From a virus (taxonomy: Duplodnaviria > Caudoviricetes): 56,847 nt of DNA. The stretch is from positions 1 through 56,847 of IMG/VR virus record IMGVR_UViG_3300020045_004368, one strand, 5' to 3'. The position numbers were made by a program, and so were the translations under genes. Positions 15,237 through 56,847 of this stretch are shown here, piece by piece; within the stretch, counting starts at the first letter, position 1, and the number at the start of each line of letters is the position of its first letter. The notes under the pieces are model-generated. The model did no database searches and was not told the origin of the DNA. It saw only the letters and a list, made by a program, of their open reading frames with translations.

Positions 15237-17837
15237 ATGGCTGAAGAGGAAATCAGGTTTCAGCCTTGCTCAAGGAAGCAGCAGCTAATTCTGCTGGATG
15301 ACAGTACAGACATTCTTCTGTGCGGTGGTGGTAGAAGCCTGTGCCTCCACGATAAAACAGCCCCTTAATTCGGTGAAACTCTCTCAGAGACAATACCGAG
15401 CGAAGCGAGAGCATAAGCTCTTGAACGTGTAACGACCAACCCGAAAGGGTGTACAGCTTAAGCAAGCTGGAAACAGGGGCCACCAAAATGGTGAAGATAT
15501 GGTCTGGTCTACACAGTGATGTGTAGCGGCTGGCTACGCCAGCGGGGATGCTCTAGCGAAGCGTCTTGAACAACCCCGGCAGGGGGTGGTAAGGCTCTCC
15601 GCCATGGGGAGAAGGTGCTGACGCCCACAGGGTTTGTCAACATCGAAGATGTTAGGGTAGGCGACAAGGTAGTCACCCACAAGCGCACAATCGAAACTGT
15701 CACTGACGTATGGCCGCAGGGTGTTGTTCAGCTCTACCGCGTGACGTTCGCTGATGGCCGCACTATTGACGCTTGTGGAGAACACCTCTGGCAGCATGAC
15801 GGCTGTGTGTCCAGCACGTTGGACATCAAGCAGCTTCTGGCTAGCGGAACGCCAGTGGCTATACCCGAGTACGGGGACAAAGGCAGCTTACCGATTGACA
15901 GCGTTGTTGCCATCGACAAAGACTACGCTACGTGCATTGCAATCAGTGGCCCAGACAAGCTGTTTGTCACCACCAATTACATTGTCACTCACAACAGCCA
16001 TACGTGTCTGACAAAGGCTCTGAAGTACATCAATGACCCGGCAGCACGAGTTCTCATTGTCCGACGTAGCTACCCAGCACTGAAGCTGTCTGGGGGCCTT
16101 GTAGACGAGTCTAAGGGCATCTACAAGCACTTCAAGGGTGTGTTCAAGATCCAGCCTCTAACTTGGGTGTTCCCCAACGGGGCCACTATCCAGTTTGCAG
16201 CTCTGCCTGATGACCTCAGCGAATGGCAAGGGTTGCAGGCCACCAACATCCTCGTAGACGAAGCGGCAGAGTTCACTCAGGAAGAAATCATCTTCCTTGT
16301 GTCTCGCTTGCGAGGGGCCAACTACAAGGGCCACTTGAATGTCCTGATGACATGCAACCCATCACGAGACAGCTTCCTATTCAAGTGGCTAGAGTATTGC
16401 TTGGACGAAGAGACAGGCATCCCGAAGCATGGCACAGAGGATATTGTTCGTCACTTCATTAACGTTGGCGGCAAGCTGTATTGGGCAAACTCTGAAGAAG
16501 AGCTTTGGCAGCAGAGTGGGAAGGGGCTTGGGCTGGTGCGGGGCAAGACGTTCAGGCCAATGACGTTCAGGTTCATCCCAATTACAATCAACGACAACCC
16601 TATTCTGTTGAAGAATAATCCTCAATACCTGAACAACCTGCTGAGCCAATCTCGGGTTAATCAGTTGAGGTTTTTGCACGGTTAACACATGGGCCGTGAA
16701 GCACAGCAATGTGTTTAAGAAAAATACGTGAACTCAGGGAACACCTCATTGAGACAATCCTGAGCCAAGTGGAGGCGAGAGCCTCTGAAGGTGCAACGAC
16801 CATCCCGTAAGGGAGTACAGCTCAAGCGAGCTGGAAGCGCGTATCCCCGTCAGTTGACGGGTGAAGATATGGTCTGATCTGCATGGTGACATGCAGCGGC
16901 TGGTGTAGGCCAGCGGGGACGCTCTAGCGAAGCGTCTTGAACAAAAGTCATGGACCGCCAAGCCTGATGGTGAAGGCTATTTCCGTCGAGAGTGGGTGAG
17001 CATCGTGCCACACCCTCCAGCAAACCCTACGGCCCGTGTACGCTCGTGGGACTTGGCAGCTTCAATCCCCTGCGAGAGCAGCCCCAACCCTGACTGGACA
17101 GCCGGGGTGAAGATGAGCAGAGACAAGTTTGGCGTCTACTACATTGAGGATGTCATTCGCTTCAGAAAGCTCACAGACGGCGTTCTGAGGGGCATTGCAG
17201 ACGCTGCTAAGGGTGATGGAGACGACACCACAGTGACCATCCCTCGTGACACAGGGGCAGGAGGGAAGACAGCCAACGCATTCTTCATGCGTACGCTGGC
17301 TGAGCAAGGGGTTGCTGTCAAGAGCGTTGTGATGAGCGGCCACTCAGGCAAGATTCAGCGGTTTAGTCCGTTCTGTGCTCTAGCCGAGAGTGGTGCTGTG
17401 CGCCTTGTGCAAGGTGAGTGGAATGAAGAATTTCTGGCAGAGCTTGAGAACTTCTCAGGGTCTAGAAACCAGAAGGACGATTGATATTGGTTGTCCTTAA
17501 ACCTGTCTAAGTCGGTGAACACCTCAGCCAGCCTGAGACAATACCGAGCCAAGCAAGGGCTGATGCTCTTGAAGGTGTAGAGGCCAGCTCGCAAGAGCGT
17601 AGAGACTAAGTAGTCTCGAAATGGCAGGCCCAGCGCAAGCTGGTGAAGAGATGGTCCCATCTGCATGGCGACATGCAGCATTCAGAGATGAATGGGCAAG
17701 AGCTAACGACCCTTGTTTAAGATATGCAAGTGGACGCAACCTCAGACGCGTTCAACACAATCTCCAAGCAGGTGGTGCTGCCAACATTCGCAGTCCCAGC
17801 CATGCAAGGAGCCTCCATCACACCGAGAGTGTCATGA
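15237..17837 (+). CDS. terL: terminase large subunit; join(15237-15332,15579-16682,16948-17481,17727-17837); 614-aa precursor, 480 aa after intein removal
   Basis: Splicing restores LLCGGG|AGGGK[intein]S (Walker A), ILVDEA (Walker B), TCNP, RFLHG|SW, SWDLA and KDD|QVDA nuclease motifs, all in frame. Confidence 0.93.
15333..15578 (+). mobile_element. group I intron 1 (terL Walker A), 246 nt, no ORF
   Basis: 5' exon ends in U and pairs with IGS GCCTCCAC (U.G at splice site); P3 GCCCCT/AGGGGC; GAAGATATGGTCTG core; terminal G; frame restored. Confidence 0.92.
15594..15995 (+). mobile_element. class 3 mini-intein (134 aa) in TerL Walker A
   Basis: Starts ALRHGEKVLT after GK, ends IVTHN before Ser; block B ACGEHLW, block F ATCI, block G VTHN give the Trp-Cys-Thr signature; no endonuclease domain. 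Confidence 0.88.
16683..16947 (+). mobile_element. group I intron 2 (terL), 265 nt, no ORF
   Basis: P1 CACGGT|TAA...GCCGTG; P3 ATACGTG/CGCGTAT; GAAGATATGGTCTG; ends ...AAAAG|TCATGG giving LHG-SW. Confidence 0.92.
17482..17726 (+). mobile_element. group I intron 3 (terL nuclease motif), 245 nt, no ORF
   Basis: P1 AAGGACGAT|...GTTGTCCTT; P3 CCTGTC/GGCAGG; GAAGAGATGGTCC core; ends ATATG|CAA giving DD-QVDA. Confidence 0.9.
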
Positions 17838-17899
17838 CAGAAGGGGGCAGAGGCGCCCTTTGCCCTACTTTTAATATTACTGACTCGCTGGTCAGTAAT

Positions 17900-17928
17900 T
17901 TGACAACAATTTTTTAGCCATGTATAAT
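17900..17928 (+). promoter_or_regulatory. consensus sigma70 promoter before portal
   Basis: TTGACA-17 nt-TATAAT. Confidence 0.8.
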
Positions 17929-17954
17929 TCCGTTCACTTCTAGGAGGACACAGA

Positions 17955-19430
17955 ATGCCCAAAAAAGCATTGTCTCCAGACCCTCAAGCTATTATCCCTA
18001 GAATGAGTTTGGGGGAACAAGGTGTTCTAGGTCTGAAGACGATTAACAAACGGATTATGGAAGAGACCACAGCGGCCTTCCGTTATCCACAATTCATCCG
18101 CACCGTGAACGAGATGCGCAACAACCCCACAGTGGGTGCTGCCATGAACGTCTACCGGATGATGCTGTCCCGTGTACAGTGGGACGTTGAGGCACCCAAG
18201 GGAGCCTCTGCAAAAGATAAAGAGCGAGCAGACGCTGTTCGCACAATGATGCACGACATGGAGCACTCCTGGGGAGCGTTCATTGAGAGCATCATCCCAT
18301 ACCTTGAGTATGGCTTCGCTGTTAACGAGATTGTCCTGCGCCGTCGATTGACACGTAATGGCTCAAACTTCAATGACGGCCTCGTAGGCCTTAAGAAGCT
18401 GGCTCCACGTAGTCAGGACACAATCGCTGGCTGGGTGTTCTCCGATAACGGGGACGACCTCATTGCCGTTGAGCAGAGTCTGGAGAATGTCCCTAACGCC
18501 TACAGGTTTCAACGCAAGCTGAACGAGGTGGGTCGCTTGGAGATTGAGCGAGAGAAATTCTTGCTGTTCTCGGCCTCTGCTGCCAAGGGCAATCCTGAAG
18601 GTAATAGCATCTACAAGAACATCTACCTTGCATTCAAGCAGCTCACGCTGTTGCAAGACCAAGAGCTTGTCGGTATTGCCAAGGACGTTCAAGGCATCCT
18701 GAAGATTGCCATCCCGCCTCGCTACCTAGACCCCAACGCTTCCACGGAAGACAAGGCCGCTGTAGCTGCCTTCCAGACAATCATTGAGAACTACAACAGC
18801 GGCACACAGCGTGGTCTGCTTGTTCCCAACATGATTGATCCTGAGTCCAAGCTGCCGCTCTTCACATACGACTTGATGGAGAGCAAGGGCTCGGCCAAGT
18901 ATGACACAGAGAGTGTTATCCGCAGGCTGCAAGGGGACATCCTCTCAGCCCTGAACGTAGACATTCTACGGCTTGGCTCTGAGGGCTCCGGCAGCTTCTC
19001 GCTAGCTGAACAGAAAAGCAGCATCTTGGCGCTTGCCATCGACTACCGGTTGAAGGAAATTGCAGAGGTGCTCAATAGCCACCTCATGCGGACCATCTAC
19101 CGAATGAATGGCTGGAACACTGAGAGTATGGCCAAGTTTGTCTACGCAGATGTTGACGAAGCTAGCCTGGAAGACTTCGCTAAAGCTGTGCAGCGCATTA
19201 TGTCTGTCGGGGGTGTCGAGTGTGACAGAGCCCTGTTCAACAGGGTTCGTGGCGTGCTGGGTATTCCTCTGCTGCCAGAAGATCAAGAGGTTGACAGAGA
19301 CCTACTTCCAGCCAATATGACAGGGGCGTCGTCCAGGGCAGGGGACGGAATGAAGTCACCAACAGGGAACGGTACCAGCACAGACCCGTTTGGTGATGAA
19401 GACCCTAGCGTAGCTAACAAGGATAACTAA
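17955..19430 (+). CDS. portal protein
   Basis: 491 aa directly after TerL; YGFAVNEIV, GNPEGNSI and GSFSLAE motifs typical of phage portals. Confidence 0.85.
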   Translation: MPKKALSPDPQAIIPRMSLGEQGVLGLKTINKRIMEETTAAFRYPQFIRTVNEMRNNPTVGAAMNVYRMMLSRVQWDVEAPKGASAKDKERADAVRTMMHDMEHSWGAFIESIIPYLEYGFAVNEIVLRRRLTRNGSNFNDGLVGLKKLAPRSQDTIAGWVFSDNGDDLIAVEQSLENVPNAYRFQRKLNEVGRLEIEREKFLLFSASAAKGNPEGNSIYKNIYLAFKQLTLLQDQELVGIAKDVQGILKIAIPPRYLDPNASTEDKAAVAAFQTIIENYNSGTQRGLLVPNMIDPESKLPLFTYDLMESKGSAKYDTESVIRRLQGDILSALNVDILRLGSEGSGSFSLAEQKSSILALAIDYRLKEIAEVLNSHLMRTIYRMNGWNTESMAKFVYADVDEASLEDFAKAVQRIMSVGGVECDRALFNRVRGVLGIPLLPEDQEVDRDLLPANMTGASSRAGDGMKSPTGNGTSTDPFGDEDPSVANKDN

Positions 19431-20296
19431 TGAGCAACGCTCACTCTCTGGCGAGGCTGAAAGCCTCGCTTTATAACGTCCCACACGCCATCACACCTGA
19501 GAGTATGGCTGTAGTGCTCGACTACCTTGATTCGCGTGATAACGTGTTCACGCCAGCTTCTGAAGTGAGGCTCCCCAAGAACCCCCTCAGCAATATTGAG
19601 GGCGTTGAAATCGAAGACGATTACAGCATGGGGATTGGCCTGCTTGAAGTGCATGGAAGCCTCACCTACCGCCGCGTGGAAACAATGTGCGGAGAAGCTG
19701 GCTCCAGCTACCAAGACCTTGTGGAAGACACAATGGAAATGGCAGAAGCTGGGTGCTCCATCATTATCATGGAAGTGGCCTCTGGCGGTGGCATGTGCTC
19801 TCATTGCTTTGAGACAGCACGTGAGATTAGGGCCATCTGCGACTCCTACAACATCAAGCTGATTGGCTATGCCGACGAGCAAGCCTGTAGCGCCGCTTAC
19901 GCGCTCTTGTGCATCTGCGATGTGGTGGTGGCTAACCCTTCAGCAGAACTCGGCTCTATCGGCGTTCTAGTGGCCCTCATGGACACGTCTGAAGCCATGA
20001 AGCAGGCAGGCCTGAAGCGCATCTTCATCACATCAGGAACCAACAAGGTTCCATTCGCTGATGACGGCACATTCAAGAAGAGCTTCCTTGACGGCTTGCA
20101 GGCAGATGTTGACAGGCTCAATATGGAGTTTGCAGAACACGTCAGTCGCTACACAGGGCTTTCCACCGAAACAATCATGGGCTTTGAAGCTGACACGTTT
20201 GACGCTGTTAAAGCTGTCGAGCTTGGCCTTGCCAACTCTGTGATGACCAGCAAGGAATTCGCAGAATATATTATCCGAGTCAAAGGAACACAATGA
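19430..20296 (+). CDS. prohead protease (S49 family)
   Basis: SGGG, ACSAAY, GSIGV motifs. Confidence 0.88.
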   Translation: MSNAHSLARLKASLYNVPHAITPESMAVVLDYLDSRDNVFTPASEVRLPKNPLSNIEGVEIEDDYSMGIGLLEVHGSLTYRRVETMCGEAGSSYQDLVEDTMEMAEAGCSIIIMEVASGGGMCSHCFETAREIRAICDSYNIKLIGYADEQACSAAYALLCICDVVVANPSAELGSIGVLVALMDTSEAMKQAGLKRIFITSGTNKVPFADDGTFKKSFLDGLQADVDRLNMEFAEHVSRYTGLSTETIMGFEADTFDAVKAVELGLANSVMTSKEFAEYIIRVKGTQ

Positions 20297-20844
20297 AACA
20301 AAACTCAGTGCTGCAAAAGCTGCTGAATAAACTTGCTCCTGTACCTGAAGCCACTAAAGCTGAAGACATTGTGCAAGCCGCCACAGAGGAAGCTTCTGTT
20401 GAGCTTTCAACGCTGAAGGCCGAGCTGGAAGCTGGTAAGGCTGAAATCGCCACGCTGGCCTCAGCCCTTGAAACAGCTCTCGCTGCTGTGGCTGAAGCTG
20501 ATAGCAATGTCGCAGCCATGCAAGCCAAGATGCAAGAGTTCACAGCTCAAATTGAAGCTGAAAAGCTGCAAGCTGAAGCCAAGCGTCAGGAAGCCCGCAA
20601 AGCTGCTGTTGAAGCTGCTGTGGGTACAGCCAAGGCTGATGGCCTGATGGCCGCTACAGCCGCCCTTGATGACGCAGCTTTCCAAGCTGTTGTTGATGCG
20701 CTGTCGCTGTCTGTTGAAGCAGAAGCCAACAGTGCCATGTTTAATGAAGCCGGGGCGAGTGCCGAGGCTGACGTTGATGCAGCCGGCGAGTCTGCTGAGA
20801 TGAAGATTATCAAAGATCGCTACAAATCAAAAGGAACTAAATAA
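20293..20844 (+). CDS. putative scaffolding protein
   Basis: Ala/Glu-rich coiled coil between protease and head genes. Confidence 0.65.
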   Translation: MKQNSVLQKLLNKLAPVPEATKAEDIVQAATEEASVELSTLKAELEAGKAEIATLASALETALAAVAEADSNVAAMQAKMQEFTAQIEAEKLQAEAKRQEARKAAVEAAVGTAKADGLMAATAALDDAAFQAVVDALSLSVEAEANSAMFNEAGASAEADVDAAGESAEMKIIKDRYKSKGTK

Positions 20845-21248
20845 TGTCAGTTTTTGCTACCGAAGGCAAGCGCTTCAGCGCTGTGTTTAAGCATGAGTAT
20901 GATCCCGCAGTGGCCTACTGCCGTGAGAGCGTCACCCTGAACGATACCACCAACCTGTCGCTGACAGTGGGTGCTGTGCTCGGCAAGGTGACTGCCACGG
21001 GCAAGTACAAGCTGTCGCTGTCGGCTGCTTCAGACGGCTCACAAACCCCTGCCGCCATTCTGATGGGCGGTGTGGATGGCAGCGATTCGCTGACGCTGGT
21101 GAGCGGTACAGATGCCAAGGCTGTCGTGGCTGTTCGTGGCCCCGTCATTGTTGCTGGTGAAGCCCTCACCATCGGCACAGGCCACACCATTGCTACCGTC
21201 AAGGCCGCTCTGCTGGCTGCTGGCGTGCTGGTGGAAACGTCACTGTAA
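20844..21248 (+). CDS. head decoration protein
   Basis: GAVLGKVTATGKY...DGSQTPAAIL motif of lambda gpD-like decoration proteins; precedes MCP. Confidence 0.82.
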   Translation: MSVFATEGKRFSAVFKHEYDPAVAYCRESVTLNDTTNLSLTVGAVLGKVTATGKYKLSLSAASDGSQTPAAILMGGVDGSDSLTLVSGTDAKAVVAVRGPVIVAGEALTIGTGHTIATVKAALLAAGVLVETSL

Positions 21249-21296
21249 TAATTTAAGGGGAGGCACAGCCTCCCTGATAAACAAGGAAATAATAAA

Positions 21297-22310: not shown

Positions 22311-22328
22311 TCTTAGGATTAGCGCCCA

Positions 22329-22358
22329 AGGGCCTCTCCAGCAGGGGAGGCCCTTTTT
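22329..22358 (+). terminator. intrinsic terminator after MCP
   Basis: GGGCCTCTCC-AGCAG-GGGAGGCCC-TTTTT. Confidence 0.75.
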
Positions 22359-22377
22359 GCTTATAGAGGGAGGACAT

Positions 22378-22752: not shown

Positions 22753-22754
22753 TT

Positions 22755-23482: not shown

Positions 23483-23505
23483 GAGACACCACCCTCTCTC
23501 TCAAA

Positions 23506-23534: not shown

Positions 23535-23556
23535 ACCCGCCAATAAAGGAGCCTGA

Positions 23557-23988: not shown

Positions 23989-23995
23989 GAAGACA

Positions 23996-43623: not shown

Positions 43624-46121
43624 TTACAGCGAACAAGCCTCGCAGACAGGAGCCTCAGCGGCCTCCTTGACAGCTACGCTTGTAGAGCTGTTGATATAGT
43701 AGCGCGTCTTGGCTCCAAGCTTAACACGGGTAAGCCAATCAGCCAGCAATTGTTTCGTACTAAGCTCTCGGCTACCTTCATTGTCATACTTGATGTAGTA
43801 GTCTGCCGAGATGGCTTGGTCTGTGAAGCACTGGATGGCAGCATACATCTCTGCCATGTCTGTGGCTGACACATCCCATGCAAGCTCATAACTTCCAGCC
43901 AGCTTATCAGAGTCTGGGGCGATGAACAAATTCTTGTTGGTGCCAGAGGTCTTTACCAGCTTCAGAGCACGAACAGGGTACACAGAGTTGGTGTGACCAG
44001 AGGCCACAGCACTAGCTTCACAAGGCATGATTGCGCAGACGACACTGAAGCGGCCACCATACAGCTTCATCTCTTGACGATAGCCCTCCCAATCCAGCGA
44101 AGGGCTGACACCAAGCCGCTTCTGAATCTCAGCGTTGGCTGTGTCGATAGGAAGCCACCCATCAGCATACTTGGTGGCGTACCACCCATCAGCGGCTCCA
44201 CGCTCCTTGGCGAGCCTTGTAGACGCCTTGTAGAGCCAATAGGTGTGGCGTTCAGCGTGGTAGTAGATGTGACGCTTACCCTCAAGGCTTGAATACTTCA
44301 GCCCACGGCTAGCCATGTCGTAAGCCAGGTTGGTGATGCCAACGCCAATGTTACGGCGATAGGTGGCCGTGGCCTTCAGATGAGGGAACGGGTAGTCCAT
44401 CAAGGACAGCACATTGTCAATCATGAGGCAAGCATAGTAGGCTACGTCTTCATACTCTTCGTCCGTGGTAAGGCCAGCGGCAATGGCTGCAAGGCTGCAA
44501 AGGGCAATCTCGCCAGCGTCTTCGGAAAGATTCTCCTCGTAGAGCTGTTGGACACTTCCGTATCCTTTGGTTGGTAGGGCAATCTCTTGCATTGTTGTTC
44601 AAGACGCTTCGCTAGAGCATCCCCGCTGGCGTAGCCAGCCGCTGTACATCACTGTACAGATCAGACCATATCATAACCCGTTCTGGGCTCCTGCCGCTTC
44701 CAGCTTGCTTAAGCTGTACTCCCGTGAGGGATGGTCGTTACGCGTTCTAGAGAAGGTCTCTAGCTTCGCCCGGGATTGTCTACGAGAGGGGTTCCCCGGT
44801 TTCAACAGGTTTGCAACAAGCGTTCCCGCTTGAGGGTGCCAGATTAACACAGATTGCTGGAGTAAATCTTTTCCTTGAATGGCGTATGCCGGTTCAGTTC
44901 CTCCGTGTTGTGCTCATATACACGGCCAGTTTCCACAGCCTCCTTGAGCATCTCAATGGCAATGTTACGAGCCTTGATGATACGTTTTGGAATGCTCTTG
45001 TCAGCCAGCACACGCTCATACTCTACGACAAACAAGCTGGAAGGGCCGTACATGGCTTCATACAACTCAGGCGCATCCCCATAAGACACGAGCATCCAAT
45101 CCTCGTTCTTGGCGACTCGACGGGCAAACTCATTGTTGTAGCCAACAGAGTAGTCGATGTTCCTCACTTGCTTCTCTACGACAGTTTGAACGTTCTTGAG
45201 CTTCAGGAGGTCTTCAATCTCCGGGTTCAAGACGTTGTAATGCATGGTAGCAGAGCCGCCACGAGAGCCTTGCTTGTTGGCAGCCACAGCGCTCTGCGTC
45301 ATACGGTAGTAGGGGATAAGCCCTTGGTGGACAACAGCTCCAGCCCTCACCTTGTCACCAATGCTGCGGCTCTTGATGTGAGCACCAATGCCAGCTCCTG
45401 CACAGGTCATCATATAGGTGATGTAGTCAGCAGCAGCTAGGCTAGGCACAGTGTCATTGGTGGTGGTGACACAGCAGGAAGCGTAGGCTCGCTCAGGAGT
45501 TCCAAGGTTAACAGAGAAGGGGCTGGGCGCATTAATCTTCTTGTGAGCAAGGTAGAGGTAGAGCTTGCGGACATCCTCCATACGACGATCAGCAGGCATG
45601 CCGGCCATGTTGCCTAGAGCCATTCGCATGTAGACGAATTGAGGCGTCTCGTACACGTGCTTGCTGACACGATCAACGATGGCATATTTCTCCATCACTT
45701 GCTTGGTCTCAGTGAGCGTGGCTTGCAGGTCAAGCTGGTGGTCGATGAATGTGTCGCAATAGGCCAGCTCAGCCTCAGAGTAGGGCATCTTGTCCCACAT
45801 GCCTTTGTCGCTCATGAGGGTAGCCATGGCACCAACAGAGGGGATGCTGCGCCAATCGCCAAAGGCTTGCTTGTAGATGGCACCAATGTACAGGCGGCCA
45901 GCCATCTTAAGGTGGGCCGTAGTCTCTTGGTCAACACAAGCTGCAATCAGGGCATTATGCAGGTCTTCTGTGGTGCAGCCATCATGACATTTGCGGGTAG
46001 CCTCAAGGACGACACCACTCCAGTTGACGCCAATGCCAGAGGCCCATTCACCCCATTGGTTGAGCTTGTCAGCGTCAAACGGCACCAGAGCACCAGAGCG
46101 TTTCTTAATATTCACAATCAT
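43624..46121 (-). CDS. nrdA: ribonucleotide reductase class I alpha subunit; join(46121-44847,44589-43624), 746 aa
   Basis: IKKRSG ATP-cone-like start, ETPQ, ASCC, SNLC|QEI active site restored by splicing, DQAISAD, KTRYY, C-terminal CEAC. Confidence 0.93.
44590..44846 (-). mobile_element. group I intron 4 (nrdA active site), 257 nt, no ORF
   Basis: P1 GTGT|TAA...GCAC; P3 CCTGTT/GGCAGG; GATATGGTCTG; 50 nt identical to intron 1; ends ATG|CAA. Confidence 0.92.
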
Positions 46122-47970: not shown

Positions 47971-48552
47971 TTAGTCTGTTACCTCCACAACGTAGTTCAT
48001 AAGCGCGTCGTAGACGCGCGGGTCGATGACGGGCCGGTAGAGGGCCGCTACTCGGCGGGCTTCAGCTTCTTTGGCAGGCTTGTAGGCAGCAAAGGCAGCT
48101 TCAGGTGTGGTGAAGTAGCCTAGGCCACTTTGCTTGCCGTTGACGCTAAGTTGTACTTTAAACTTCTCCGTCTTAGCGTCCCAGCACACCCCGATAGGCC
48201 ATTCCCCTCTGGCTGCATCGCACTTGACAAGCAACGTATTCACAGCTCTAGGGACAAAGACACAAAGCTCAGGGCAATAGACTTTGTTTCCTTTGAGTAG
48301 AATGTCTTTGTCAAGCTGCCCAGCCTCATAACCAATCTGGTGCCTTGCCCATTCGATAAACTCGTGGCAGGAAGTCCATGTGTATGAGCAACCGATGTAG
48401 GCTGGCTTGTTGCGCTGGCGGCTTCCACCAACCTTGCAGCGCTGAGTCATGTCATGCCAATACCTGCCACCAACGGTTGGGTAATTCTTCCCGGCGACCA
48501 TCCCGGTCTGCATCCATTCACCATACTCGTTCTTGTAATCTTCAAGCTTCAT
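47971..48552 (-). CDS. free-standing HNH-like homing endonuclease with AP2-like C-terminus (copy A)
   Basis: W.DM.QRC, LDKDIL.KGNKVYCPE.CVFV...N, PIGV...F......GK...LGYF.T.EAAF.AY. Confidence 0.8.
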   Translation of the reverse strand: MKLEDYKNEYGEWMQTGMVAGKNYPTVGGRYWHDMTQRCKVGGSRQRNKPAYIGCSYTWTSCHEFIEWARHQIGYEAGQLDKDILLKGNKVYCPELCVFVPRAVNTLLVKCDAARGEWPIGVCWDAKTEKFKVQLSVNGKQSGLGYFTTPEAAFAAYKPAKEAEARRVAALYRPVIDPRVYDALMNYVVEVTD

Positions 48553-49480
48553 TATCCCCTCCATAAGTCTTAGCTAGCCAATCCAATCCCACAAACAGCG
48601 GGTCGTAACTACCGTTCCGGACATTATGCTTGAGCACTACACCGCGCCAGTGGGCATTGCCTTGGGCACCTTTGTACTCTTCTTCATGCATATAACACGC
48701 GCCAGCGATCAATCCCCACTGCTGGCTCCCGTCAGCCGGCAAGAAGCGGGTAGCCACGTCTAGTACCTGCCGGTGCCCCTGAGTAAAGCTCTGCCCGATT
48801 GTCTTGAGCATGTTGGCTGCCGTGCCAGACAACGGCTTACCGGTCAGCACGTTCTGGAAGAAATGAGCATATGCCACGCCATCAACAATCACAGGCTTTA
48901 AGAAGGGGTAGACCTCCCAGCCCGCCTCTTCGTAACCCAGGCTGTGCATGCCAAGAAAACCATGCAGCTCAGGATTCGCGTCAACATGGCGATCAATTCT
49001 AGCTTCGTGGTTGCCGAGCGTCAGTACCATCCGGGGATTGTACACCGGCTTACCAGCAGCCTGCTGCTGAGCTTGAAGTTCTCGCATTGGGGCGAGCAGT
49101 AGTTTCATCCCTTCTTTTGCGGCTGTAATATCTTCCGACACACGCCGACCCTCAGCAGACCGTTTGCCTTTGTCGTAGGACGACAGCGATGGCATATCTG
49201 CAAAGTCTCCAATGTTGACAATAACATCTGGGCGAGCCTTGACAATGTACTTGCCAATGTGGGTCAAAAAACTCGTGTCAATGCCCTGCTTCACCTGACA
49301 ATCAGGAATCAGCAGGTGCCGATTGGAATGCTTAGACGGCTCTTTGATTTTACCAACCCCCCTCAAATAATCACTCACCGTGCTCTTGCTAATCCCCAGC
49401 GCCTTGGCAATCTGCCGCCAGCTCATGCTGCCCTCGTTTGCCATTGCTTCAGCCATGCTCTGCCATTGTTGCTTGCTCAT
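48542..49480 (-). CDS. metallophosphoesterase with N-terminal HTH
   Basis: SWRQIAKALGISKSTVSDYL; IPD.Q, GDFAD, LGNHE, GH motifs. Confidence 0.85.
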   Translation of the reverse strand: MSKQQWQSMAEAMANEGSMSWRQIAKALGISKSTVSDYLRGVGKIKEPSKHSNRHLLIPDCQVKQGIDTSFLTHIGKYIVKARPDVIVNIGDFADMPSLSSYDKGKRSAEGRRVSEDITAAKEGMKLLLAPMRELQAQQQAAGKPVYNPRMVLTLGNHEARIDRHVDANPELHGFLGMHSLGYEEAGWEVYPFLKPVIVDGVAYAHFFQNVLTGKPLSGTAANMLKTIGQSFTQGHRQVLDVATRFLPADGSQQWGLIAGACYMHEEEYKGAQGNAHWRGVVLKHNVRNGSYDPLFVGLDWLAKTYGGDNEA

Positions 49481-50438: not shown

Positions 50439-50439
50439 T

Positions 50440-51402
50440 TCATTCTCCTTTGACATGCTTGGCAATCATGGCTGGAACATCCAGCCTGTCATTCTCAAAG
50501 CGCCTCATGTGGCACGCGTCAGCATACATCTGCATGATGGCTACAGCGTCCTTGGTGTGCTCTGTGCCGTCCCATGCCTTGTAGCTGACAGGCGCAGGAT
50601 ACCACGTTTCGTATTGCTTGTGGACAGCTTGAATGCATTCAGTGTCTGTCTTGCAATCATTCAGCAGCTTGTACGTGCTCATGTCGCCCCAGCGCTTACC
50701 TGAAAGCTCACGAGGGTAGTAGCCGTCTGCCGAGTCTCCGTTCACCCATTGTGCGTAGAACCACTTGCGGCCCTTTCCTTTGAGCTTCTTGTCGGCGGTC
50801 AGCCACAACCCCCCAAGCCCTCGAATAAGCTCTGGAGCCTCCATCTTGGTCCAGTCGTACAGCCAACCTTCAACGCCATAGCTATCCTTGTCCAAACTCA
50901 CTTGGATGATTTGCTGCTTCGTCTTCAAGCCAGCATGAGTCCTCATGGAGAGCATGTCGTCAGCCTCACAGCCTTCAGCAGCCACAGCTCCATAATGCTG
51001 AACAAGGTATTGCCGGCAAGCCTTGAGCTGCAATGGCCGCATGAGGTCGGCACGTTGTCCCTTATACTTGCTAGGAAGAGGCAGGTTGTCCCGGAAGTTT
51101 GTAGGGCCACTAATGTACAGCTCGGCTTTCACAGCGTCACAAGCTTCCATGATGTTCTTGAGGGTGACGTTGATGCTGTGCAAGGCATGACTAAGCTCTT
51201 CAGGCTCTTGCACGTCCTCGACAACGAATTCATCTTCCTCAAACAAGCCCTTGATGTGTGCCCTGAAGGCCGTCCTATGAGGGTGAGGCGTGGCCTTCCC
51301 TGTAGCCTTGTGGGTGGCAACAATGCTCCTAGTCTCGTTAGCTGCTGCTGCCCTGTAGGCAATAATGTCGCCGTCAATAACGGCAATTGTGTTCATTCCC
51401 AT
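50440..51402 (-). CDS. 5'-3' exonuclease (T7 gp6/RNase H-like)
   Basis: IDGDIIAY, NFR, YKGQR, EADD, SLDKD, GDSADG. Confidence 0.88.
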   Translation of the reverse strand: MGMNTIAVIDGDIIAYRAAAANETRSIVATHKATGKATPHPHRTAFRAHIKGLFEEDEFVVEDVQEPEELSHALHSINVTLKNIMEACDAVKAELYISGPTNFRDNLPLPSKYKGQRADLMRPLQLKACRQYLVQHYGAVAAEGCEADDMLSMRTHAGLKTKQQIIQVSLDKDSYGVEGWLYDWTKMEAPELIRGLGGLWLTADKKLKGKGRKWFYAQWVNGDSADGYYPRELSGKRWGDMSTYKLLNDCKTDTECIQAVHKQYETWYPAPVSYKAWDGTEHTKDAVAIMQMYADACHMRRFENDRLDVPAMIAKHVKGE

Positions 51403-51422
51403 GCGCTCTCCTTGTACAAATT

Positions 51423-51447
51423 AAAAAGCCCGCCCATTGGGCGGGCC
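51423..51447 (-). terminator. intrinsic terminator
   Basis: AAAAA-GCCCGCCC-ATT-GGGCGGGC on plus strand, just past the stop of the SSB-like gene. Confidence 0.7.
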
Positions 51448-51453
51448 TCGGCT

Positions 51454-52335
51454 TTAGAACGGGGCGTCGTCGTCAGAGTCTTCCACAGGGACGGGCTTAG
51501 GCGTCGCCTTAGGCTTGTCGGCAGGAGGCGTAGCTTGAGCCGTAGCCTGCGGCGTCACACTAGGAACACCAACAGACGCCTCCCATTCCTTGATAGCTCG
51601 CTCCATTGCGGAGCCTTCATAGTTGTGGGCTTGCTTGATCTGACGGATGAGGCCAGCGCGCAAGAACTTGATGTCAGCGGCAGTGGCATTCTCGAAAGTC
51701 ACCAGCTTAGCAGGCGTCTTCAGCTCAGCCACTTCCAGCATATTGCCATCATCATCCTCGGGCACCTCAGCACAGCCACGGAAGGAAACGTTCTTGTACA
51801 CAATCACCTTGCCGTCCTTGTCCAGCTTGCCGGCCTTGTTCTGCGTCTCCTTCACTTCCACTTGAATCATCAGCGGCTCACCCAGAAGCTGCTCAATGTC
51901 CATGCTCTCAATGATGCCCGGCTTTTTGATGGCCTTAGCCACCTTGGTGATGGGAGATGCAGGGTGCAGGCCCCACGGCTTGCCTTGAATAATCTTGCCG
52001 TCAGCGTCCTTCGGAGGCGTTGCAAGGAAGTTGATACCGGAGAACACGCCAGCAAACTCACGGTTCAGCGGGAGGCGGTAGTGGGCCTTGCCGATGGAGC
52101 CACCATAGTCAACGGTGTCAGCAACAAGGTCAACGAACACAGCCACTTGATGACAAGGCTTCTGTGGGCGGGTAGCGCCAGTGGACTCATCTACGAAGTC
52201 TTCACGGGGCTGAGTACCCATGTCAACGATGAGGCTGACGCGGGCTTTACGCAGGCCGGCACGAGGGACGGGACGGGGGCCGTTGTCGAACGAAGCGGAG
52301 GAAGCGGACTTAGCGTTTGCGGGAATGAATGCCAT
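51454..52335 (-). CDS. putative ssDNA-binding/annealing protein
   Basis: In replication cluster; Pro/Ala linker and acidic DSDDDAPF tail typical of SSBs. Confidence 0.6.
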   Translation of the reverse strand: MAFIPANAKSASSASFDNGPRPVPRAGLRKARVSLIVDMGTQPREDFVDESTGATRPQKPCHQVAVFVDLVADTVDYGGSIGKAHYRLPLNREFAGVFSGINFLATPPKDADGKIIQGKPWGLHPASPITKVAKAIKKPGIIESMDIEQLLGEPLMIQVEVKETQNKAGKLDKDGKVIVYKNVSFRGCAEVPEDDDGNMLEVAELKTPAKLVTFENATAADIKFLRAGLIRQIKQAHNYEGSAMERAIKEWEASVGVPSVTPQATAQATPPADKPKATPKPVPVEDSDDDAPF

Positions 52336-52364
52336 TTTGTAGTTCCTTTATGGTAGTGCGTTGT

Positions 52365-52664
52365 TTAACGCTTTTGGGCTGCGCTTTCAGCGCGGGAGGC
52401 AACAGCTTCTGCAAGCTGCTGTTTAAACTCTTCCTTGTTCAGCAGCACTCCGGTAAGCTCGTTGAAAGCTCCTTCGAAGATGTTGAACAAGGAAGACAGT
52501 GATTCTACATCAACAGGCTTGCCATTGCGGACAAGGCCATCAACAAATTGTGCAAGCAGGCATTGTGCAAGAACAAGGCAAGCTGTAGACGTGTCATAGC
52601 AGCTCTCAAGCACTTCTTGCACCTCAATGCATTGCTCGCTGATGTGTTGTTCAATGGTAGTCAT
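52365..52664 (-). CDS. hypothetical protein
   Basis: 99-aa ORF in operon. Confidence 0.6.
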   Translation of the reverse strand: MTTIEQHISEQCIEVQEVLESCYDTSTACLVLAQCLLAQFVDGLVRNGKPVDVESLSSLFNIFEGAFNELTGVLLNKEEFKQQLAEAVASRAESAAQKR

Positions 52665-52924
52665 TTATTTCCTTTCAGCTCGTCAATGAGCTTGGTGTCG
52701 TGGGCCACATGCGAGGCTTGCAGATTGATGAGCTTGCAAGCTTTCTCGTATTGCGCTTGCATTGATTCTAGCGTTATTTCTTGCCCAGCGTCAAGAATAT
52801 TTTCAACCATTTGAATGACAAAGGCTTGCCCAATGGCTTGCATGCGGAGGCTGTTGTCAGGCTCTGCATGCACAACGTCGCAGATGTTTAAGCAGAGCTT
52901 GGCGATGGATTCTTTGGTTGTCAT
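52661..52924 (-). CDS. hypothetical protein
   Basis: 87-aa ORF in operon. Confidence 0.6.
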   Translation of the reverse strand: MTTKESIAKLCLNICDVVHAEPDNSLRMQAIGQAFVIQMVENILDAGQEITLESMQAQYEKACKLINLQASHVAHDTKLIDELKGNK

Positions 52925-52925
52925 T

Positions 52926-53789
52926 TCAGCCTTTCGGTGCAGAGAGCGAGGTCAGGGCTTCAGCGTGCAGAAGTGCAGCCTCTTCGGTGGCGTGGGCGAA
53001 GCCGCGCTTAATCATGAGATGGTCAAAAGCATCACCGCACCAATTATCACATGAGGTAACGGGCTCTTGGAGGAAGAGGGCAGGGGAGTAGTAGGTGGAC
53101 CCCATGGCAGGTGCTTCCCGCATCGGCTCTGGCACGTCGTACTCACCAATACGAATGGTACGCGGAGGCTCAGGCTTGCGGCGGTATTCTACGGTGGGAG
53201 ACCACGAAGGATCTTTGTCAAGGGGTTGCCATGCGTCAACTTGACCTACGTATTGACCCTCCCACAGTTTCCACGGCTCTTCAGTGGTGAGTGCATCATG
53301 TCCGTATTGGATCATCTTGTCAGCGTGAACGTGTGCTTTGGTCATATCGACCTCCTTAGGTTGAACGGCTGCAGGTTCTTCGATAGGAACCCAAAAACCT
53401 TGGCGAAGGCAGCTAGCCACAAGGTCACGCAAGCAATAGAGGTAATCCTTCGGGCTGTCCTGCGGTGCCACTCGACAAGAGTCCTTGTCGTACGGAGTGC
53501 AGACAAACACAGCACCGTCATAATTCTTGAACTTGAATCGCTTGTCAATATCAATCATTTCATTCTCCTTGGGTTGAGTAGGGGTGGGCTCTTCGACAGG
53601 AATCCAAATTTTATCGATCAGACATTCGCGTACCAAGCCTTCATAGTACCTAGTACCTTCGGACAGAGAGCCAAGCTCCTTGACTCGATGCCAGTGGCCG
53701 CCACCATCATTTGGCGGGGAGCACACATATGTGACATCTTGATTTGCCCCATCTACAGTGAACTCGAACGGCTTGCTAATGTCAATCAT
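52926..53789 (-). CDS. modular hypothetical protein with two internal in-frame RBS/ATG sites
   Basis: Two MIDIxK modules plus an MTKAHVHA...EYRRKP module; internal AAGGAG+ATG at 53558 and AAGGAGG+ATG at 53345. Confidence 0.7.
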   Translation of the reverse strand: MIDISKPFEFTVDGANQDVTYVCSPPNDGGGHWHRVKELGSLSEGTRYYEGLVRECLIDKIWIPVEEPTPTQPKENEMIDIDKRFKFKNYDGAVFVCTPYDKDSCRVAPQDSPKDYLYCLRDLVASCLRQGFWVPIEEPAAVQPKEVDMTKAHVHADKMIQYGHDALTTEEPWKLWEGQYVGQVDAWQPLDKDPSWSPTVEYRRKPEPPRTIRIGEYDVPEPMREAPAMGSTYYSPALFLQEPVTSCDNWCGDAFDHLMIKRGFAHATEEAALLHAEALTSLSAPKG

Positions 53790-53803
53790 CTTATTCTCCT
53801 TGG

Positions 53804-54352
53804 TTACGCAGCCTCTAAGGCCTCAGCCACAGCTTCCTGAAGGTCAGCCAAGCTGCTGTCGTTGGCAATCTTCAGATCCGATGGGATGTAGTGTACGCCG
53901 CTTTCCGACACATGCGCAACAACTTTCTGCGCTGATTGTCGGCTGACGTGCCACACACGCCCCCCATTGCTCCTTACCATCATAGCTTCATTCTCAAAGC
54001 GAATGTCCGTTACGACGACGTTGAAGCCTTGCGCCATGTACTGGAGGATGGTCTCTTGGGCCAGCAAGGTCCACAGGTGCTCATGGACGAGCTGACGGCC
54101 CCACTCAGTGCCCAGGCTCTGCATTAGCTGTCGAGGACTCTTCCCCAACCAGTGTACTGGTTGCTCCTTTTGAGGGCCATCACACTGATAGGGACTGAGG
54201 ATGCGCATGGCAATCAAGGCATCCTTAAGCGGGCCTGCGAAGGAGACAGACCTCCAAGAGCTGTCTTGGAGGAGGAAGGAGGCCACAGTGTCTTTCCCGG
54301 AGCGTGCAGGGCCTGTAAGGCCGATGAGACTAGGAGCGTTAGATGAGGTCAT
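53804..54352 (-). CDS. deoxynucleoside monophosphate kinase
   Basis: IGLTGPARSGKDT, FA.PLK, SPRQLMQSLGTEWGR, VVTDIRFENEA, H.SE. Confidence 0.9.
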   Translation of the reverse strand: MTSSNAPSLIGLTGPARSGKDTVASFLLQDSSWRSVSFAGPLKDALIAMRILSPYQCDGPQKEQPVHWLGKSPRQLMQSLGTEWGRQLVHEHLWTLLAQETILQYMAQGFNVVVTDIRFENEAMMVRSNGGRVWHVSRQSAQKVVAHVSESGVHYIPSDLKIANDSSLADLQEAVAEALEAA

Positions 54353-54707
54353 TGTCGAGTGCCCTTTCGTATTTTAAGATATCTCTTTTGGTATAGTGGA
54401 TTGTGTTGGGGGTGACGAGAGTGTGCCCGTTAGTGTACAGCCATTCAAGCATATCAATAGCTTTCACCTTACGAATGGTGAGGCGGCCAACGCGAGAGCG
54501 CTTGTACACGTATGGGAACCCTTTGGGTATCTTGACAAGCTGGCTGAAGGCGACGGCGATGAAGCCGTCTCCGACAAGTAGGGCCTCAACACAACCAGCT
54601 ACGATGGAGGCCCAAGCTTCAGGGGTAGGGGCTGTGAGGGCAGCTTTATAGGAAGAGGGCAGCCGCCCACGTCTGTGGGCGGTGCCTTGAGGTAGCGGGC
54701 GAGTCAT
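54339..54707 (-). CDS. hypothetical basic protein
   Basis: 122-aa ORF overlapping both neighbours. Confidence 0.6.
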   Translation of the reverse strand: MTRPLPQGTAHRRGRLPSSYKAALTAPTPEAWASIVAGCVEALLVGDGFIAVAFSQLVKIPKGFPYVYKRSRVGRLTIRKVKAIDMLEWLYTNGHTLVTPNTIHYTKRDILKYERALDNDLI

Positions 54708-55288
54708 CAGTCGTCTATCTCCACAGTGTATGACATGAGCGCGTCTACGACGCGCGGGTCAAGGACGTGACGGTAGAGAGCCGCTACGCGGCTGGCTTCG
54801 GCTTCTTTGGCTTGCTTGTAGGCTGTGAAGGCAGCTTCAGAGGTATTGAAGAGTCCCAAGTAATTGGTTTTGCCGTTAATTCTAAGGTATGCCTTAAACC
54901 TCCCATTCTCTTTATCCTGGCACACTCCAATCGGCCACTCTCCTCTGTCTGCATTTCTTTTAACAAGCAAGTTGTTCACTGCGCTGTGGACAAAAACGCA
55001 AAGCTCTGGGCAATAGACTTTGTTTCCTTTAAGGAGTATGTCTTTATCCAACGCTCCAGTTCCATAACCTACTTGTTGTCTGGCCCACTCGATGAATTCA
55101 TGGCAAGAATTCCACGTGTAGGAACAACCAACATATGTTGGTTTGTTGCGCTGGAGGCTCCCTCCAACCTTGCAGCGCTGCGTCATGTTGTTCCAGTACC
55201 TACCGCCTACGGTGGGGTATTTCTTCCCGGCAACTGTACCAGACCCCATCCACTCTCCGTATTCATTCTTGTAGTCCTCAAGTTTCAT
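54707..55288 (-). CDS. free-standing HNH-like homing endonuclease with AP2-like C-terminus (copy B)
   Basis: Same 193-aa length and motifs as copy A; identical MKLEDYKNEYGEWM start. Confidence 0.8.
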   Translation of the reverse strand: MKLEDYKNEYGEWMGSGTVAGKKYPTVGGRYWNNMTQRCKVGGSLQRNKPTYVGCSYTWNSCHEFIEWARQQVGYGTGALDKDILLKGNKVYCPELCVFVHSAVNNLLVKRNADRGEWPIGVCQDKENGRFKAYLRINGKTNYLGLFNTSEAAFTAYKQAKEAEASRVAALYRHVLDPRVVDALMSYTVEIDD

Positions 55289-55298
55289 TTCATTCTCC

Positions 55299-56847
55299 TT
55301 AGTGAATGTCTCGCCAATTCCTACCCACTTTGCCCTCTCCTGCCAAAGGGATGTGCAGCTTCAAATAAGCTCCAGCCTTAACCATAGCTTGTTCCATCAT
55401 CAATCTCAACTTCTCTGCCACCTCTGGTGAGGTCTCGAATGTGTACTCGTCCTCGGTGTTCAAGACGCTTCGCTAGAGCGTCCCCGCTGGCTACGCCAGC
55501 CGCTGCATGTCACCATGCAGGTCAGACCATATCATCATCCCCGCCATGCGGGGATGCCAGCCGCTTCCAGCTCGCTTGAGCTGTACTCCCTTTCGGGATG
55601 GTCGTTGCACCTTCTGAAGCTGTCGCCTCAGCTTGGCTCAGGATTGTCTCAATGAGATGTTCCCTGAGTTCAACCGGTTATTCAATTGACATTGCTGCCA
55701 AAGGCCACCACAAGTTAATGGTAATACAAAACGCGAATCACCTTGCACCCGTCTAGCTCATAGTACGGCCTACCAAGTTCGTCCAGCTTCATCTCTCCCA
55801 GCATTGTATCCATGATGCAGCATGCTGTGTCCATAGCAATAGCCCCCAAGCTTTGTAGGATGGTGTTAGCAAGGCTGTGTTTTGAGCGTGTCTTGAGAAG
55901 TCTACCATCAATAGCTGGGACAACTTTCTTACCGCCCGTTGTTTCCCAATACTTGGTAAGATTTGTCACGAACTTGTCCAGAGACGGGTTGGCGTCCCAG
56001 AATGCCTTGTGCATCGTCTTACCTTGTGCTGGACGTGCTCCCACCATCTTTGCCAGCTTTTCCGGTGAACAACCATAGAGCAGAGCATAACCAGCAGCCT
56101 TAGCTTTATTTCTAAACGGCTTGAACGCCGGGTCGTCCTTACTAAAATCAGGGCTGGTGATGTCAAATTTAGCGGCCTCTGCAAACATAGCCACAGCAGT
56201 TTTACTGTGGACATCTCCTTTCAGAAGCTCCTCGGCATATGCTCCTCCATCATACCTGTACGTCATGTGGCCCGCACACCGTTGCTCAAGGCCGGCGCTG
56301 TCTGCACCAACAAGCACGTTGTCTCCTTGAGCGCAGAACAGGCTTCTGAATTCGTCACCGTACAAGCTGCCGCCTCCTGCTCGTGGTACGTTACACACTA
56401 CAGAATGGCATTGACGATGACTCACAGCAATCTTAGTGGCTGATGCCCCAATCCTGCCGTCAAAGGCCAGCCGAGCATTTGCCATCCACGATGTCAGCAC
56501 ACTTCGTCGGTTACGCAATGACAAAAACTTAACAACGTCCTTGATGAGCTGGCCCTCCATCGCCTGCAAATTGGGGCACAGCACACCGCCCTCTTGGATC
56601 TTGGGGCTCGTCTCAATCACCTTGCCTTTGTCATCCCGCATGGGCTTGCCGCTAGCGTCTTTCTGCAAGTTGTAGAATGTCGGCTCCCATCCGATGGAAA
56701 TCAGCCAGCTCTTGAAATGCTGCTGATCGCCAATAACCATCGGGAGTTTCACGTCTAGGGTTGTTTTGGGCTCGATAGCGTAGACCTTTCCATAAAACTC
56801 TACAGTGCCGTCATCCAGCACCTTTCCATTGTGCTTGGCAATGAAGC
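55299..56847 (-). CDS. polA: family A DNA polymerase, 5'-partial; join(>56847-55718,55451-55299)
   Basis: Motif A GADSAGLEQR, GDVHS, motif B RNKAK...YALLYG, NTILQS, motif C YYH|DE restored by splicing, C-terminal G.NW.DIH. Confidence 0.92.
55452..55717 (-). mobile_element. group I intron 5 (polA motif C), 266 nt, no ORF
   Basis: P1 TACCAT|TAA...GTGGTG; core nearly identical to intron 2; ends GAG|GACGAG. Confidence 0.92.

Follow-up and report, generated by a model that had tools for sequence, protein, structure and literature searches.

The introns of bacteriophage T4 lie in td, nrdB and nrdD, and Staphylococcus phage Twort carries three in orf142 and two in nrdE. For the Jug phages, 2513 introns of ~206 nt are reported from 136 of 139 genomes, which gives an average of 18.5 per genome; terL is divided there into two to three pieces, and splicing of 37 of 76 introns is supported by metatranscriptomes. 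The same account mentions crAss-like phages as a further intron-rich case (PMC12880540). In the Bastillevirinae, 45 introns in 37 genes are described (PMC11878797). The presence of many small group I introns lacking an open reading frame (ORF) in terL, ribonucleotide reductase (RNR) and polymerase genes of one phage is already published. Here we analyzed five such introns in a 56,847-nt stretch of DNA, the whole of IMG/VR record IMGVR_UViG_3300020045_004368 (hereafter the window), where they divide the terL, nrdA and polA genes of an uncultured tailed phage. Like those described for T4, Twort, the Bastillevirinae, crAss-like and Jug phages, they are introns of IA2 type placed within conserved stretches of terL, RNR and polymerase genes, and many of the introns in those phages are likewise ORF-less. 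The source differs from those intron-rich phages in lineage, being a freshwater phage of roughly 80 kb; in addition, a module common to four of the five introns was found in none of 83 relatives, and one gene combines three introns with an intein located 15 nt from one of them. The Jug and Bastillevirinae accounts, in the text available and supplements aside, contain no analysis of kinship among the introns within one genome. The account that we judge probable, with considerable room for doubt, is that the five introns have separate histories, that a 3' module was exchanged among introns inside this one genome, and that homing was served by endonucleases acting in trans.

Trans-homing is known from the pair formed by T3 gene 5.3 and the phage PhiI polymerase gene, and from cyanophage psbA. 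Collaborative homing, as described in the available text, couples a free-standing endonuclease with an ORF-less intron at one conserved site (PMC3984707, PMC2988022). The ORF-less polA intron of the window resembles that arrangement, with a candidate HNH-type gene directly 3' of it; it departs from the arrangement as described in that the gene matches only part of a PHROG profile and in that terL and nrdA have no adjacent endonuclease. Among Cluster J mycobacteriophages, an ORF-less tail-gene intron of 265 bp is reported to share sequence with a capsid-gene intron that bears an endonuclease, a 156-bp segment of the latter being 98% identical to part of the former, and both splice (PMC3706429). 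By that account the Cluster J pair is found in different phages, whereas here four partly identical copies occupy three genes of one genome. Bryk and Belfort are said to have described, in Nature in 1990, laboratory recombination between T4 intron core elements that gave rise to chimeric introns. This domain shuffling is the mechanism proposed here, reportedly observed with T4 in the laboratory as opposed to the natural mosaic of the window. Related introns at different sites in eukaryotic rRNA have been taken, in the text available, as circumstantial evidence of guide-directed transposition (PMC1299323); in contrast to those introns as described, each site here has a different guide, and the 5' domains show no clustering by genome. 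A 2014 review, in its accessible part, states that there is no direct evidence of transposition by reverse splicing and lists ectopic mobility as a future topic (PMC3984707). Our literature search, which was thin on subscription journals and left supplements aside, turned up no study in which the exchange of modules among the introns of a single natural phage genome was analyzed. For the open question of the route by which group I introns reach new sites, this genome is a compact case from nature. One phage lineage, encountered repeatedly in public freshwater metagenomes, allows a comparison of same-site orthologues that have or lack endonuclease genes, of copies in three unrelated genes and of what appears to be recent module exchange.

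A preliminary description of the window, made from its sequence alone, had read five inserts as group I introns. All five match the Rfam covariance model RF00028, which served as our group I test at its curated cut-off of 50 bits, and this reading holds. Intron boundaries were set by reading the sequence and are consistent with the range and lengths that had been given. On the plus strand, intron 1 (I1; 15333-15578, 246 nt, 59.2 bits) lies inside the Walker A codons of terL (GGG|AGGGK), intron 2 (I2; 16683-16947, 265 nt, 78.1 bits) separates LHG|SW in the same gene, and intron 3 (I3; 17482-17726, 245 nt, 42.6 bits) separates KDD|QVDA. On the minus strand, intron 4 (I4; 44846-44590, 257 nt, 51.7 bits) splits nrdA at NLC|QE, and intron 5 (I5; 55717-55452, 266 nt, 86.1 bits) splits polA at YH|DE, in motif C. 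Four of the five pass the cut-off and I3 falls just under it, with an E-value of 7.8e-9 in a 3.1-kb search. A T precedes and a G ends every one of the introns, all are in phase 0, and an in-frame stop opens four of them (TAA, TGA, TAA, TAA), with I1 opening with AGA; phase, stops and the conserved-motif positions in three essential genes were all reproduced as first described. A hidden Markov model (HMM) built from the five introns found no sixth copy in the window. None of the five encodes an endonuclease, the reading frames of at least 60 amino acids that overlap them being confined to the opposite strand.

To compare the introns block by block, 88 family members, 83 of them external to the window, were aligned to one HMM built from the five window introns. 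Overall identity is 77% between I2 and I5 (206/268), 69% between I1 and I4 and 69% between I4 and I5, and I3 is 52-54% identical to the others. I1 (terL) and I4 (nrdA) share an exact run of 50 nt, loops and unpaired positions included (15525-15574 and 44643-44594, respectively), just as had been noted in the preliminary description. Across the 42 columns of the P9.1-P9.2 tail, I1 and I4 agree at 42 of 42, and the other pairs among I1, I2, I4 and I5 are 86-90% identical; no external intron (n=83) exceeds 79% to a window intron in this tail. One P7.2 stem motif and two tail motifs occur together in I1, I2, I4 and I5 and in 0 of the 83 external introns. I3 has neither the shared tail nor the P7.2 signature. 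The five introns are related, as first described, yet the claim that they form one family stands only in part: it applies to the 3' module of these four introns and not to I3, which is of separate lineage by its low identity and by its 5' grouping with same-site introns described below. No exact match outside the window was found for the shared tail among viral and metagenome contigs or for the P7.1-P7.2 block among metagenome contigs, searches from which records of the same genome were possibly excluded. The C-G form of one P7 pair (GACCA/UGGUC) is found in all five window introns, I3 included, and in 4 of the 83 external ones, of which 70 have the U-A form; for this pair we cannot tell conversion from compositional adaptation.

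The cores of I2 and I5, described earlier as nearly identical, are indeed 90-98% alike by block (P4-P6 90%, J6/7-P7.2 92%, P7'-P9 97%), but the likeness is not specific to this genome. In the same alignment, an intron in a capsid gene on an unrelated contig (L154) is 82% identical to I5 (155/190) and I2 is 79% identical to I5 (205/259). Outsiders equal the pair in each block: L154 reaches 91% to I5 in P4-P6, L173 97% in P7'-P9, and both L161 and the LHG|SW intron of locus L012 93% in J6/7-P7.2. The I2-I5 core likeness was accordingly dropped as a genome-specific signal once the wider set contained outsiders equally close. In P2, P3 and P8, I2 and I5 differ with full compensation. The P1-P3 region of I1 is 77% identical to that of L004 and 70% to that of L030, both of which are same-site introns, with P4-P6 at 78-80%. 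For I2, P1-P3 is 68% identical to the same-site intron of L012 against 62% to I5. I5 is nearest to terL introns of the L075 type (P2-P3 80%, P8 85%), and for the lineage-specific blocks of I4 no relative exceeds 72%. Median identity is 0.68 for introns of the same genome (15 pairs), 0.63 for introns of the same site (40 pairs) and 0.60 for pairs sharing neither (347), so that genome-mates across the family appear to have only a slight edge over same-site pairs.

The relatives that enter these comparisons carry the intron family at no fewer than eight terL sites. For 50 of the 80 terL relatives the whole record was searched with RF00028, and for the remaining 30 the terL locus only, with nhmmer. 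Matches at E ≤0.001 were found in 16 of the 50, nearly all in or beside terL, and in 4 of the 13 relatives whose completeness is 90% or more; G006, G009 and G010, near relatives with complete records, gave no RF00028 match. The Walker A position of I1 is occupied in L004/L080, L007, L030, L016, L017 and L021, and the position one codon 5' of it in L011, L014, L032 and L042/L043. Further 3' in the P-loop there are introns in L015, L074 and L075. Other terL positions are WQG| in L012 and L013, SQLTR| in L028 and L032, and a third, Walker-B-region site in L075. The LHG|SW site of I2 holds a 1013-nt intron with an HNH frame in P6 in L012, and the KDD|QVDA site of I3 holds a 794-nt intron with an HNH-type frame in the P9.1 loop in the same locus. 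Pseudomonas phage vB_PsyM_KIL1 (KU130126.1, L132) has an insert of ~770 nt at exactly KDD|QVDA, within 3396-4243, that contains a gene annotated as hypothetical, and it has a second intron at TIN|DNP. The annotated KIL1 terL stops at KDD, and an exon reading QVDATSDAF... lies unannotated beyond the insert; KIL1 seems to bear an endonuclease-type intron at the site of I3 and a terL annotation one exon short, the last exon apparently being missed because the insert splits the gene. The intron at the WQG-equivalent terL site of L013 (L013:3338-3580) has a Walker-A-type guide, GCCUCCAC, and its exon also ends in GGUGGU, which resembles ectopic movement to a target of similar sequence. The L075 introns L075:55-281 and L075:555-790 occupy two separate terL sites, pair as sisters in the tree of the 5' domain (94/87) and are 71% identical overall, which makes them the cleanest candidate for duplication to a new site in one genome.

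The preliminary description had proposed a tree with same-site introns from other phages, on the expectation that same-site grouping would argue against kinship within the genome. The outcome was divided: I3 groups by site, the 5' part of I1 is nearest to same-site introns, and the 3' module of I1, I2, I4 and I5 groups by genome. Rows with too few filled columns were left out of the trees. In the 3' domain, I1, I2, I4 and I5 form a clade with support of 87/83 among 21 rows and 94/89 among 67 rows. I1 and I4 are joined at 100/96 with the tail and at 99/94 without it, and without the tail I1, I4 and I5 are joined at 98/83. Forcing I1 together with same-site introns in this domain is rejected by the approximately unbiased (AU) test (p 0.0023); the constraint placing I2 with the LHG|SW intron of L012 is marginal (p 0.039), as is that placing all five window introns together (p 0.048), and I3 with the KDD|QVDA introns of L012 and KIL1 is not rejected (p 0.42). 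In the 5' domain, these same three KDD|QVDA introns form a clade at 97/94. The 5' tree of 56 rows requires five changes of the window label for five rows, that is, no clustering, and a branch with 99/99 support parts I1, I3 and I4 from I2 and I5. A 5' clade of the four genome-mates was rejected by the AU test with 26 rows (p 0.0025) and with 28 rows (p 0.0054). On these alignments the non-clustering of the four genome-mates in the 5' domain is suggestive, not settled. A single clade of all introns at the site of I1 is also rejected (p 0.00076), so one site hosts several lineages and the family as a whole is reticulate.

Homing requires an endonuclease, and the preliminary description, having found none in the introns, stopped there. 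We confirm that the introns contain none, yet three free-standing HNH-type genes in the window had been overlooked. One is an HNH-family/AP2 gene at 54707-55288 (-) whose start lies 10 nt beyond the polA stop codon and some 160 nt away from the site of I5. Its product matches phrog_953 'HNH endonuclease' at E 3e-51, with an AP2 match below the Pfam cut-off and a weak AP2 match in a PDB sequence search (E 0.021), and it is distantly similar to the frame inside the KDD|QVDA intron of L012 (BLASTP E 2e-5). A paralogue at 47971-48564 (-) is 76% identical, belongs to PHROG family 953 and shows the same weak AP2 match and distant similarity to the L012 frame, and a free-standing HNH/Endonuclease VII-type gene at 2293-3222 (-) is the third candidate. 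Only polA has such a gene adjoining it; terL and nrdA have none adjacent. In phage vB_PsaM_M1, which has the closest polymerase among named phages, the polymerase gene is intron-less and is likewise followed by an HNH gene, an unrelated one. Spread of the window introns to cognate sites would most likely rely on endonucleases supplied in trans by these three genes.

Taken together, we propose that the five introns belong to a cosmopolitan, reticulate family and would not be the products of one recently retargeted scaffold. I3 would be of the same lineage as the other KDD|QVDA introns while lacking their endonuclease frame, through either loss in I3 or gain in the relatives. The 5' part of I1 would be orthologous to Walker-A-site introns, and in P1-P3 I2 resembles the endonuclease-bearing LHG|SW intron of L012, which may reflect common descent. 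I1, I2, I4 and I5 would have exchanged their 3' module (P7.2 plus the P9.1-P9.2 tail), whether through gene conversion, domain shuffling or recombination in general. The exchange would be recent for the terL intron I1 and the nrdA intron I4, which are on opposite strands at a distance of 29 kb. Homogenisation by gene conversion, which had been offered as one of two options in the preliminary description, is the best fit for this module. Helices P1, P2, P3 and P8, each matched to the exon or to one another, would have kept their own lineage; recombinants mixing these helices would lose exon pairing or the pairing of the P3 strands. The other option had been that one scaffold multiplied in this lineage and was re-aimed at new sites by a change of guide, either by reverse splicing into mRNA followed by reverse transcription and recombination or by illegitimate recombination. 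The clustering of four introns in the 3' domain would follow from it as well, and ectopic-looking moves do occur elsewhere, as in the L013 guide and the L075 sisters. A change of guide needs to alter only P1, and the fact that P2, P3 and P8 differ too, with full compensation, causes us to doubt retargeting of a scaffold; moreover, the 5' part of I1 is closest to same-site introns elsewhere, I3 is of another lineage, and the core likeness of I2 and I5 is equalled by an intron in an unrelated capsid gene. As an explanation of all five introns we consider retargeting unlikely, although it may have produced the nrdA and polA copies, since no same-site relatives were found for these at the junctions compared. 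If, on the other hand, the introns were acquired by five independent homing events with no exchange, then the shared 3' module would have arisen by convergence under a common constraint such as genome G+C or a common splicing cofactor of host or phage. The C-G P7 pair, which extends to I3, speaks for such a constraint, and with a G+C of 52.6% in the window and 51-56% in the introns, composition could drive parallel changes. Convergence would hardly produce 50 consecutive identical bases in I1 and I4, loops and unpaired positions among them, and relatives form the same P9.1 and P9.2 helices from different sequences; we regard this explanation as quite improbable.

The record is a metagenome assembly, and identical tails could in principle stem from repeat collapse or chimeric joining, the more so as contigs of other runs break at the shared tails. 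The same introns are nevertheless present in four runs, each from a different study, whose contigs are mostly 95-99% alike and include I1, I2 and I3. The tail is read into the matching exon: in runs X1 and X2 the shared tail of I4 continues into nrdA exon 2, and in X6 the shared tail continues into polA exon 2. In run X3, a 49-nt contig consists of the shared stretch, at a depth of 35.8 against about 10.7 in its flanks (~3x), which likewise speaks against an artefact. Since all exon pairs also join in frame to colinear proteins, an assembly artefact is very improbable indeed. None of the contigs of four runs joins the exons across an intron, a kind of contig data that cannot show the absence of intron-less alleles. 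A more far-reaching version of the exchange account would treat the dispersed ORF-less introns as a concerted gene family, under ongoing conversion over 29-40 kb and across strands, with the nrdA and polA copies seeded by guide-directed ectopic insertion of terL-type introns. Seeding of the polA copy by a terL-type intron fits the observation that, in its lineage-specific helices, I5 comes closest to introns found in the terL genes of other phages; we put this version forward tentatively and think it improbable. If it were true, the population present in at least four freshwater studies would allow transposition to new sites to be followed between strains. For the account of separate histories with exchange of the 3' module, the following points count as evidence to the contrary. 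The alignments are short, at 93-147 columns, and were fitted to an HMM of the window introns, which may favor these. Support for the clade of four introns in the 3' domain is just 69/0 once the tail is removed. With 56 rows, the AU test no longer rejects the grouping of the four introns in the 5' domain (p 0.168), which leaves standing a tree that retargeting would predict. The lineage-specific blocks show modest identities of 66-80%, and donors are thus not pinned down. No same-site intron was found at NLC|QE of nrdA or YH|DE of polA, in 3 NrdA and 11 PolA junction comparisons from 25 related records and in 5 named-phage polymerase loci, and this too speaks for retargeting. The two HNH-like paralogues cover only the C-terminal half of the PHROG profile (215-389 of 420) and contain no Pfam HNH domain. 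Finally, splicing of the five introns is something we infer, with exon colinearity as indirect support.

Covariation supports the conserved core helices of a group I intron. An RNAalifold consensus of 15 family members has 49 pairs, 40 of them with compensatory changes on both sides, and comprises P3, P4, P5, P6, P7.1, P7.2, P9, P9.1 and P9.2; P7, a pseudoknot, and P8, which is misaligned, lie outside this prediction, and P7 was read by eye as GACCA/UGGUC. Two covarying hairpins occupy alignment columns 155-166 and 170-185, between J6/7-P7 and the P3' strand. Subgroup IA2 is defined by extra P7.1/P7.2 hairpins between P7 and P3'. By this definition, rather than by a subgroup model, the five introns are predicted to be of the phage IA2 type with an extended P9-P9.1-P9.2 region. 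Short blastn matches link them to the T4 td and nrdD introns (32-36 nt, 92-94%) and also to Twort. Each intron had been credited with its own internal guide sequence, pairing with the 5' exon and with a U.G at the splice site. This is borne out for I3, I5 and I2, whose uninterrupted P1 measured from the U.G pair comes to 9, 7 and 6 bp and is equalled or exceeded in 5, 54 and 70 of 2000 shuffles, respectively. For I4 the same count gives only 4 bp, which is the level of chance, and the P1 of I1 has 7 of 8 pairs with one U.U mismatch. The guide pairing of I1 recurs in its orthologues, and in L030 a change in the exon is matched in the guide. From the fold, each intron RNA would self-splice with guanosine using its own guide pairing to the 5' exon, and splicing would restore the Walker A loop and nuclease motifs of TerL, the NLC-E active site of RNR and motif C of the polymerase. 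The suggestion that DNA synthesis and packaging depend on one splicing activity found no support, each intron having a ribozyme of its own.

Beyond terL, the family is cosmopolitan in uncultured phages. The 19-nt P9 hairpin of I2, I3 and I5 has exact matches in at least 113 IMG/VR contigs (among them L137-L216). Flanks were checked at 17 of the 21 best-scoring new loci, and the hosts identified there are capsid, T7-type RNA polymerase and terL genes, the capsid hosts being of four kinds (SU10-type, Mu gpT-type, Phage_capsid_2 and P22-type). Two introns among the new loci contain HNH_3 frames, one of them with an AP2 domain as well, and most others have no frame. Introns also occur in polA at sites other than that of I5. 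The closest terL relative with a polymerase, G050 (L100/L111), has a weak RF00028 match in ~790 nt inside polA, at residues 176/186 of the partial PolA, a site unlike that of I5, and in the named phages Bas93, BOESR1 and 4HA13 the polA introns lie near residues 250-270 of the partial PolA. A blastn search of I4 and I5 against named phages returned partial core matches only, covering at most 74% of the query, the longest at 66-77% identity. Searches with PolA exon 1 or NrdA exon 2 confirmed no relatives, and the relatives used here came from whole-record searches.

The exons flanking the introns join into colinear proteins. For terL (+), exon 1 (15237-15332) encodes 32 amino acids ending ...LLCGGG with tblastn matches to the N-termini of relatives; exon 2 (15579-16682) encodes 368 amino acids, an intein included, matches Pfam Terminase_6N and is colinear with relatives from residue 172; exon 3 (16948-17481) encodes the 178 amino acids of the nuclease domain (Pfam Terminase_6C, profile 2-141 of 155); and exon 4 (17727-17837) encodes 36 amino acids and the stop, its QVDATSDAF... 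being colinear with relatives and KIL1. For nrdA (-), exon 1 (44847-46121) encodes 425 amino acids ending ...SSNLC, with a weak ATP-cone, Ribonuc_red_lgN and barrel positions 1-212 in Pfam, and exon 2 (43624-44589) encodes 321 amino acids and the stop, covering barrel positions 218-418. For polA (-), exon 1 (55718-56847) has its N-terminus cut off by the end of the record and ends ...VLYYH, with Pfam DNA_pol_A matched up to 321 of 381, and exon 2 (55299-55451) encodes 50 amino acids and the stop, matching positions 335-380. The Pfam profiles carry on across the exon junctions. The preliminary description had called for a search for intron-less relatives, and homologues of terL, nrdA and polA proved contiguous at the junctions. 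Both later terL junctions are spanned by a single tblastn high-scoring segment pair in 78 of 80 related loci, the exceptions being L012, interrupted at LHG|SW and KDD|QVDA, and L022, which spans only KDD|QVDA; in 15 loci the GGG...K motif runs directly into SHTCL. The joined NrdA is colinear with L128 over 746 amino acids at 63% identity, and likewise with L129, and the junction is uninterrupted in these two relatives (SNLC|QEI and SNLC|MEI). The PolA junction YH|DE is uninterrupted in 11 related records and in vB_PsaM_M1. Genes of uncultured phages such as these terL, nrdA and polA can be split into up to four pieces with an intein in addition, and gene callers miss or truncate them.

The intein in TerL is a mini-intein of 134 amino acids (15594-15995, +) at the Walker A Lys-Ser junction, 15 nt 3' of I1, so the coding sequence of the P-loop appears to be interrupted at both the RNA level and the protein level. 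Its first residue is Ala rather than Cys or Ser, and its C-terminus reads HN followed by Ser. Domain matches are weak and below the cut-offs (Hint_2, E 3.5e-4; intein_Nterm, E 3.2e-3). The insert is absent from relatives, in which residue 38 runs straight to residue 172; the identification as an intein combines this in-frame insertion, the Hint-type ends, though weak, and HN plus Ser. In one contig of the freshwater run X2, only a single A separates position 15592 from 15996 and the sequence reads GGGK|SHT, which corresponds to an intein-less allele, and the intein therefore appears to be polymorphic in nature. Inserts at the same position are also present in L011 and L023, the former of which has an intron as well. 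The polymerases of G006 (L112/L121), G014 (L109/L118) and G025 (L113/L119) have open frames of 1074-1165 amino acids that contain the PolA match in two parts, about 0.8-1.1 kb apart and with no stop between them; the intervening stretches are probably inteins.

The IMG/VR record of 56,847 bases has no end repeats and an estimated completeness of 70%. Pfam matches outline a tailed phage, with terminase, Mu-type portal, S49 protease, capsid protein E and a long tail module, followed on the opposite strand by RNR, cytosine methylase, dNMP kinase and family A polymerase. The TerL nuclease domain is 47-48% identical to PAK_P1/KIL-type Pseudomonas phages, and PolA is 50.6% identical to the polymerase of Pseudomonas phage vB_PsaM_M1 (Ounavirinae). 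A megablast search of 18 kb of the window against named phages gave zero matches. Judged from its genes and samples, the source is an uncultured freshwater tailed phage of roughly 80 kb whose TerL is distantly PAK_P1/KIL-like. Part of the terL region is present in 20 public DNA runs, which come from 10 studies and bear the label freshwater or aquatic metagenome; no public RNA run was found to contain it. Immediately 5' of terL are two tRNA genes (14821-14984, +), the second with a long variable arm. The features at 10526-11317 (-) and 7524-8681 (-) comprise, in one or the other, a phage protein that ends in a PEP-CTERM sorting motif (E 1.1e-7) and, near it, an RNA ligase with a PHA02142 OB-fold; the PEP-CTERM motif may be a hint at the host group.

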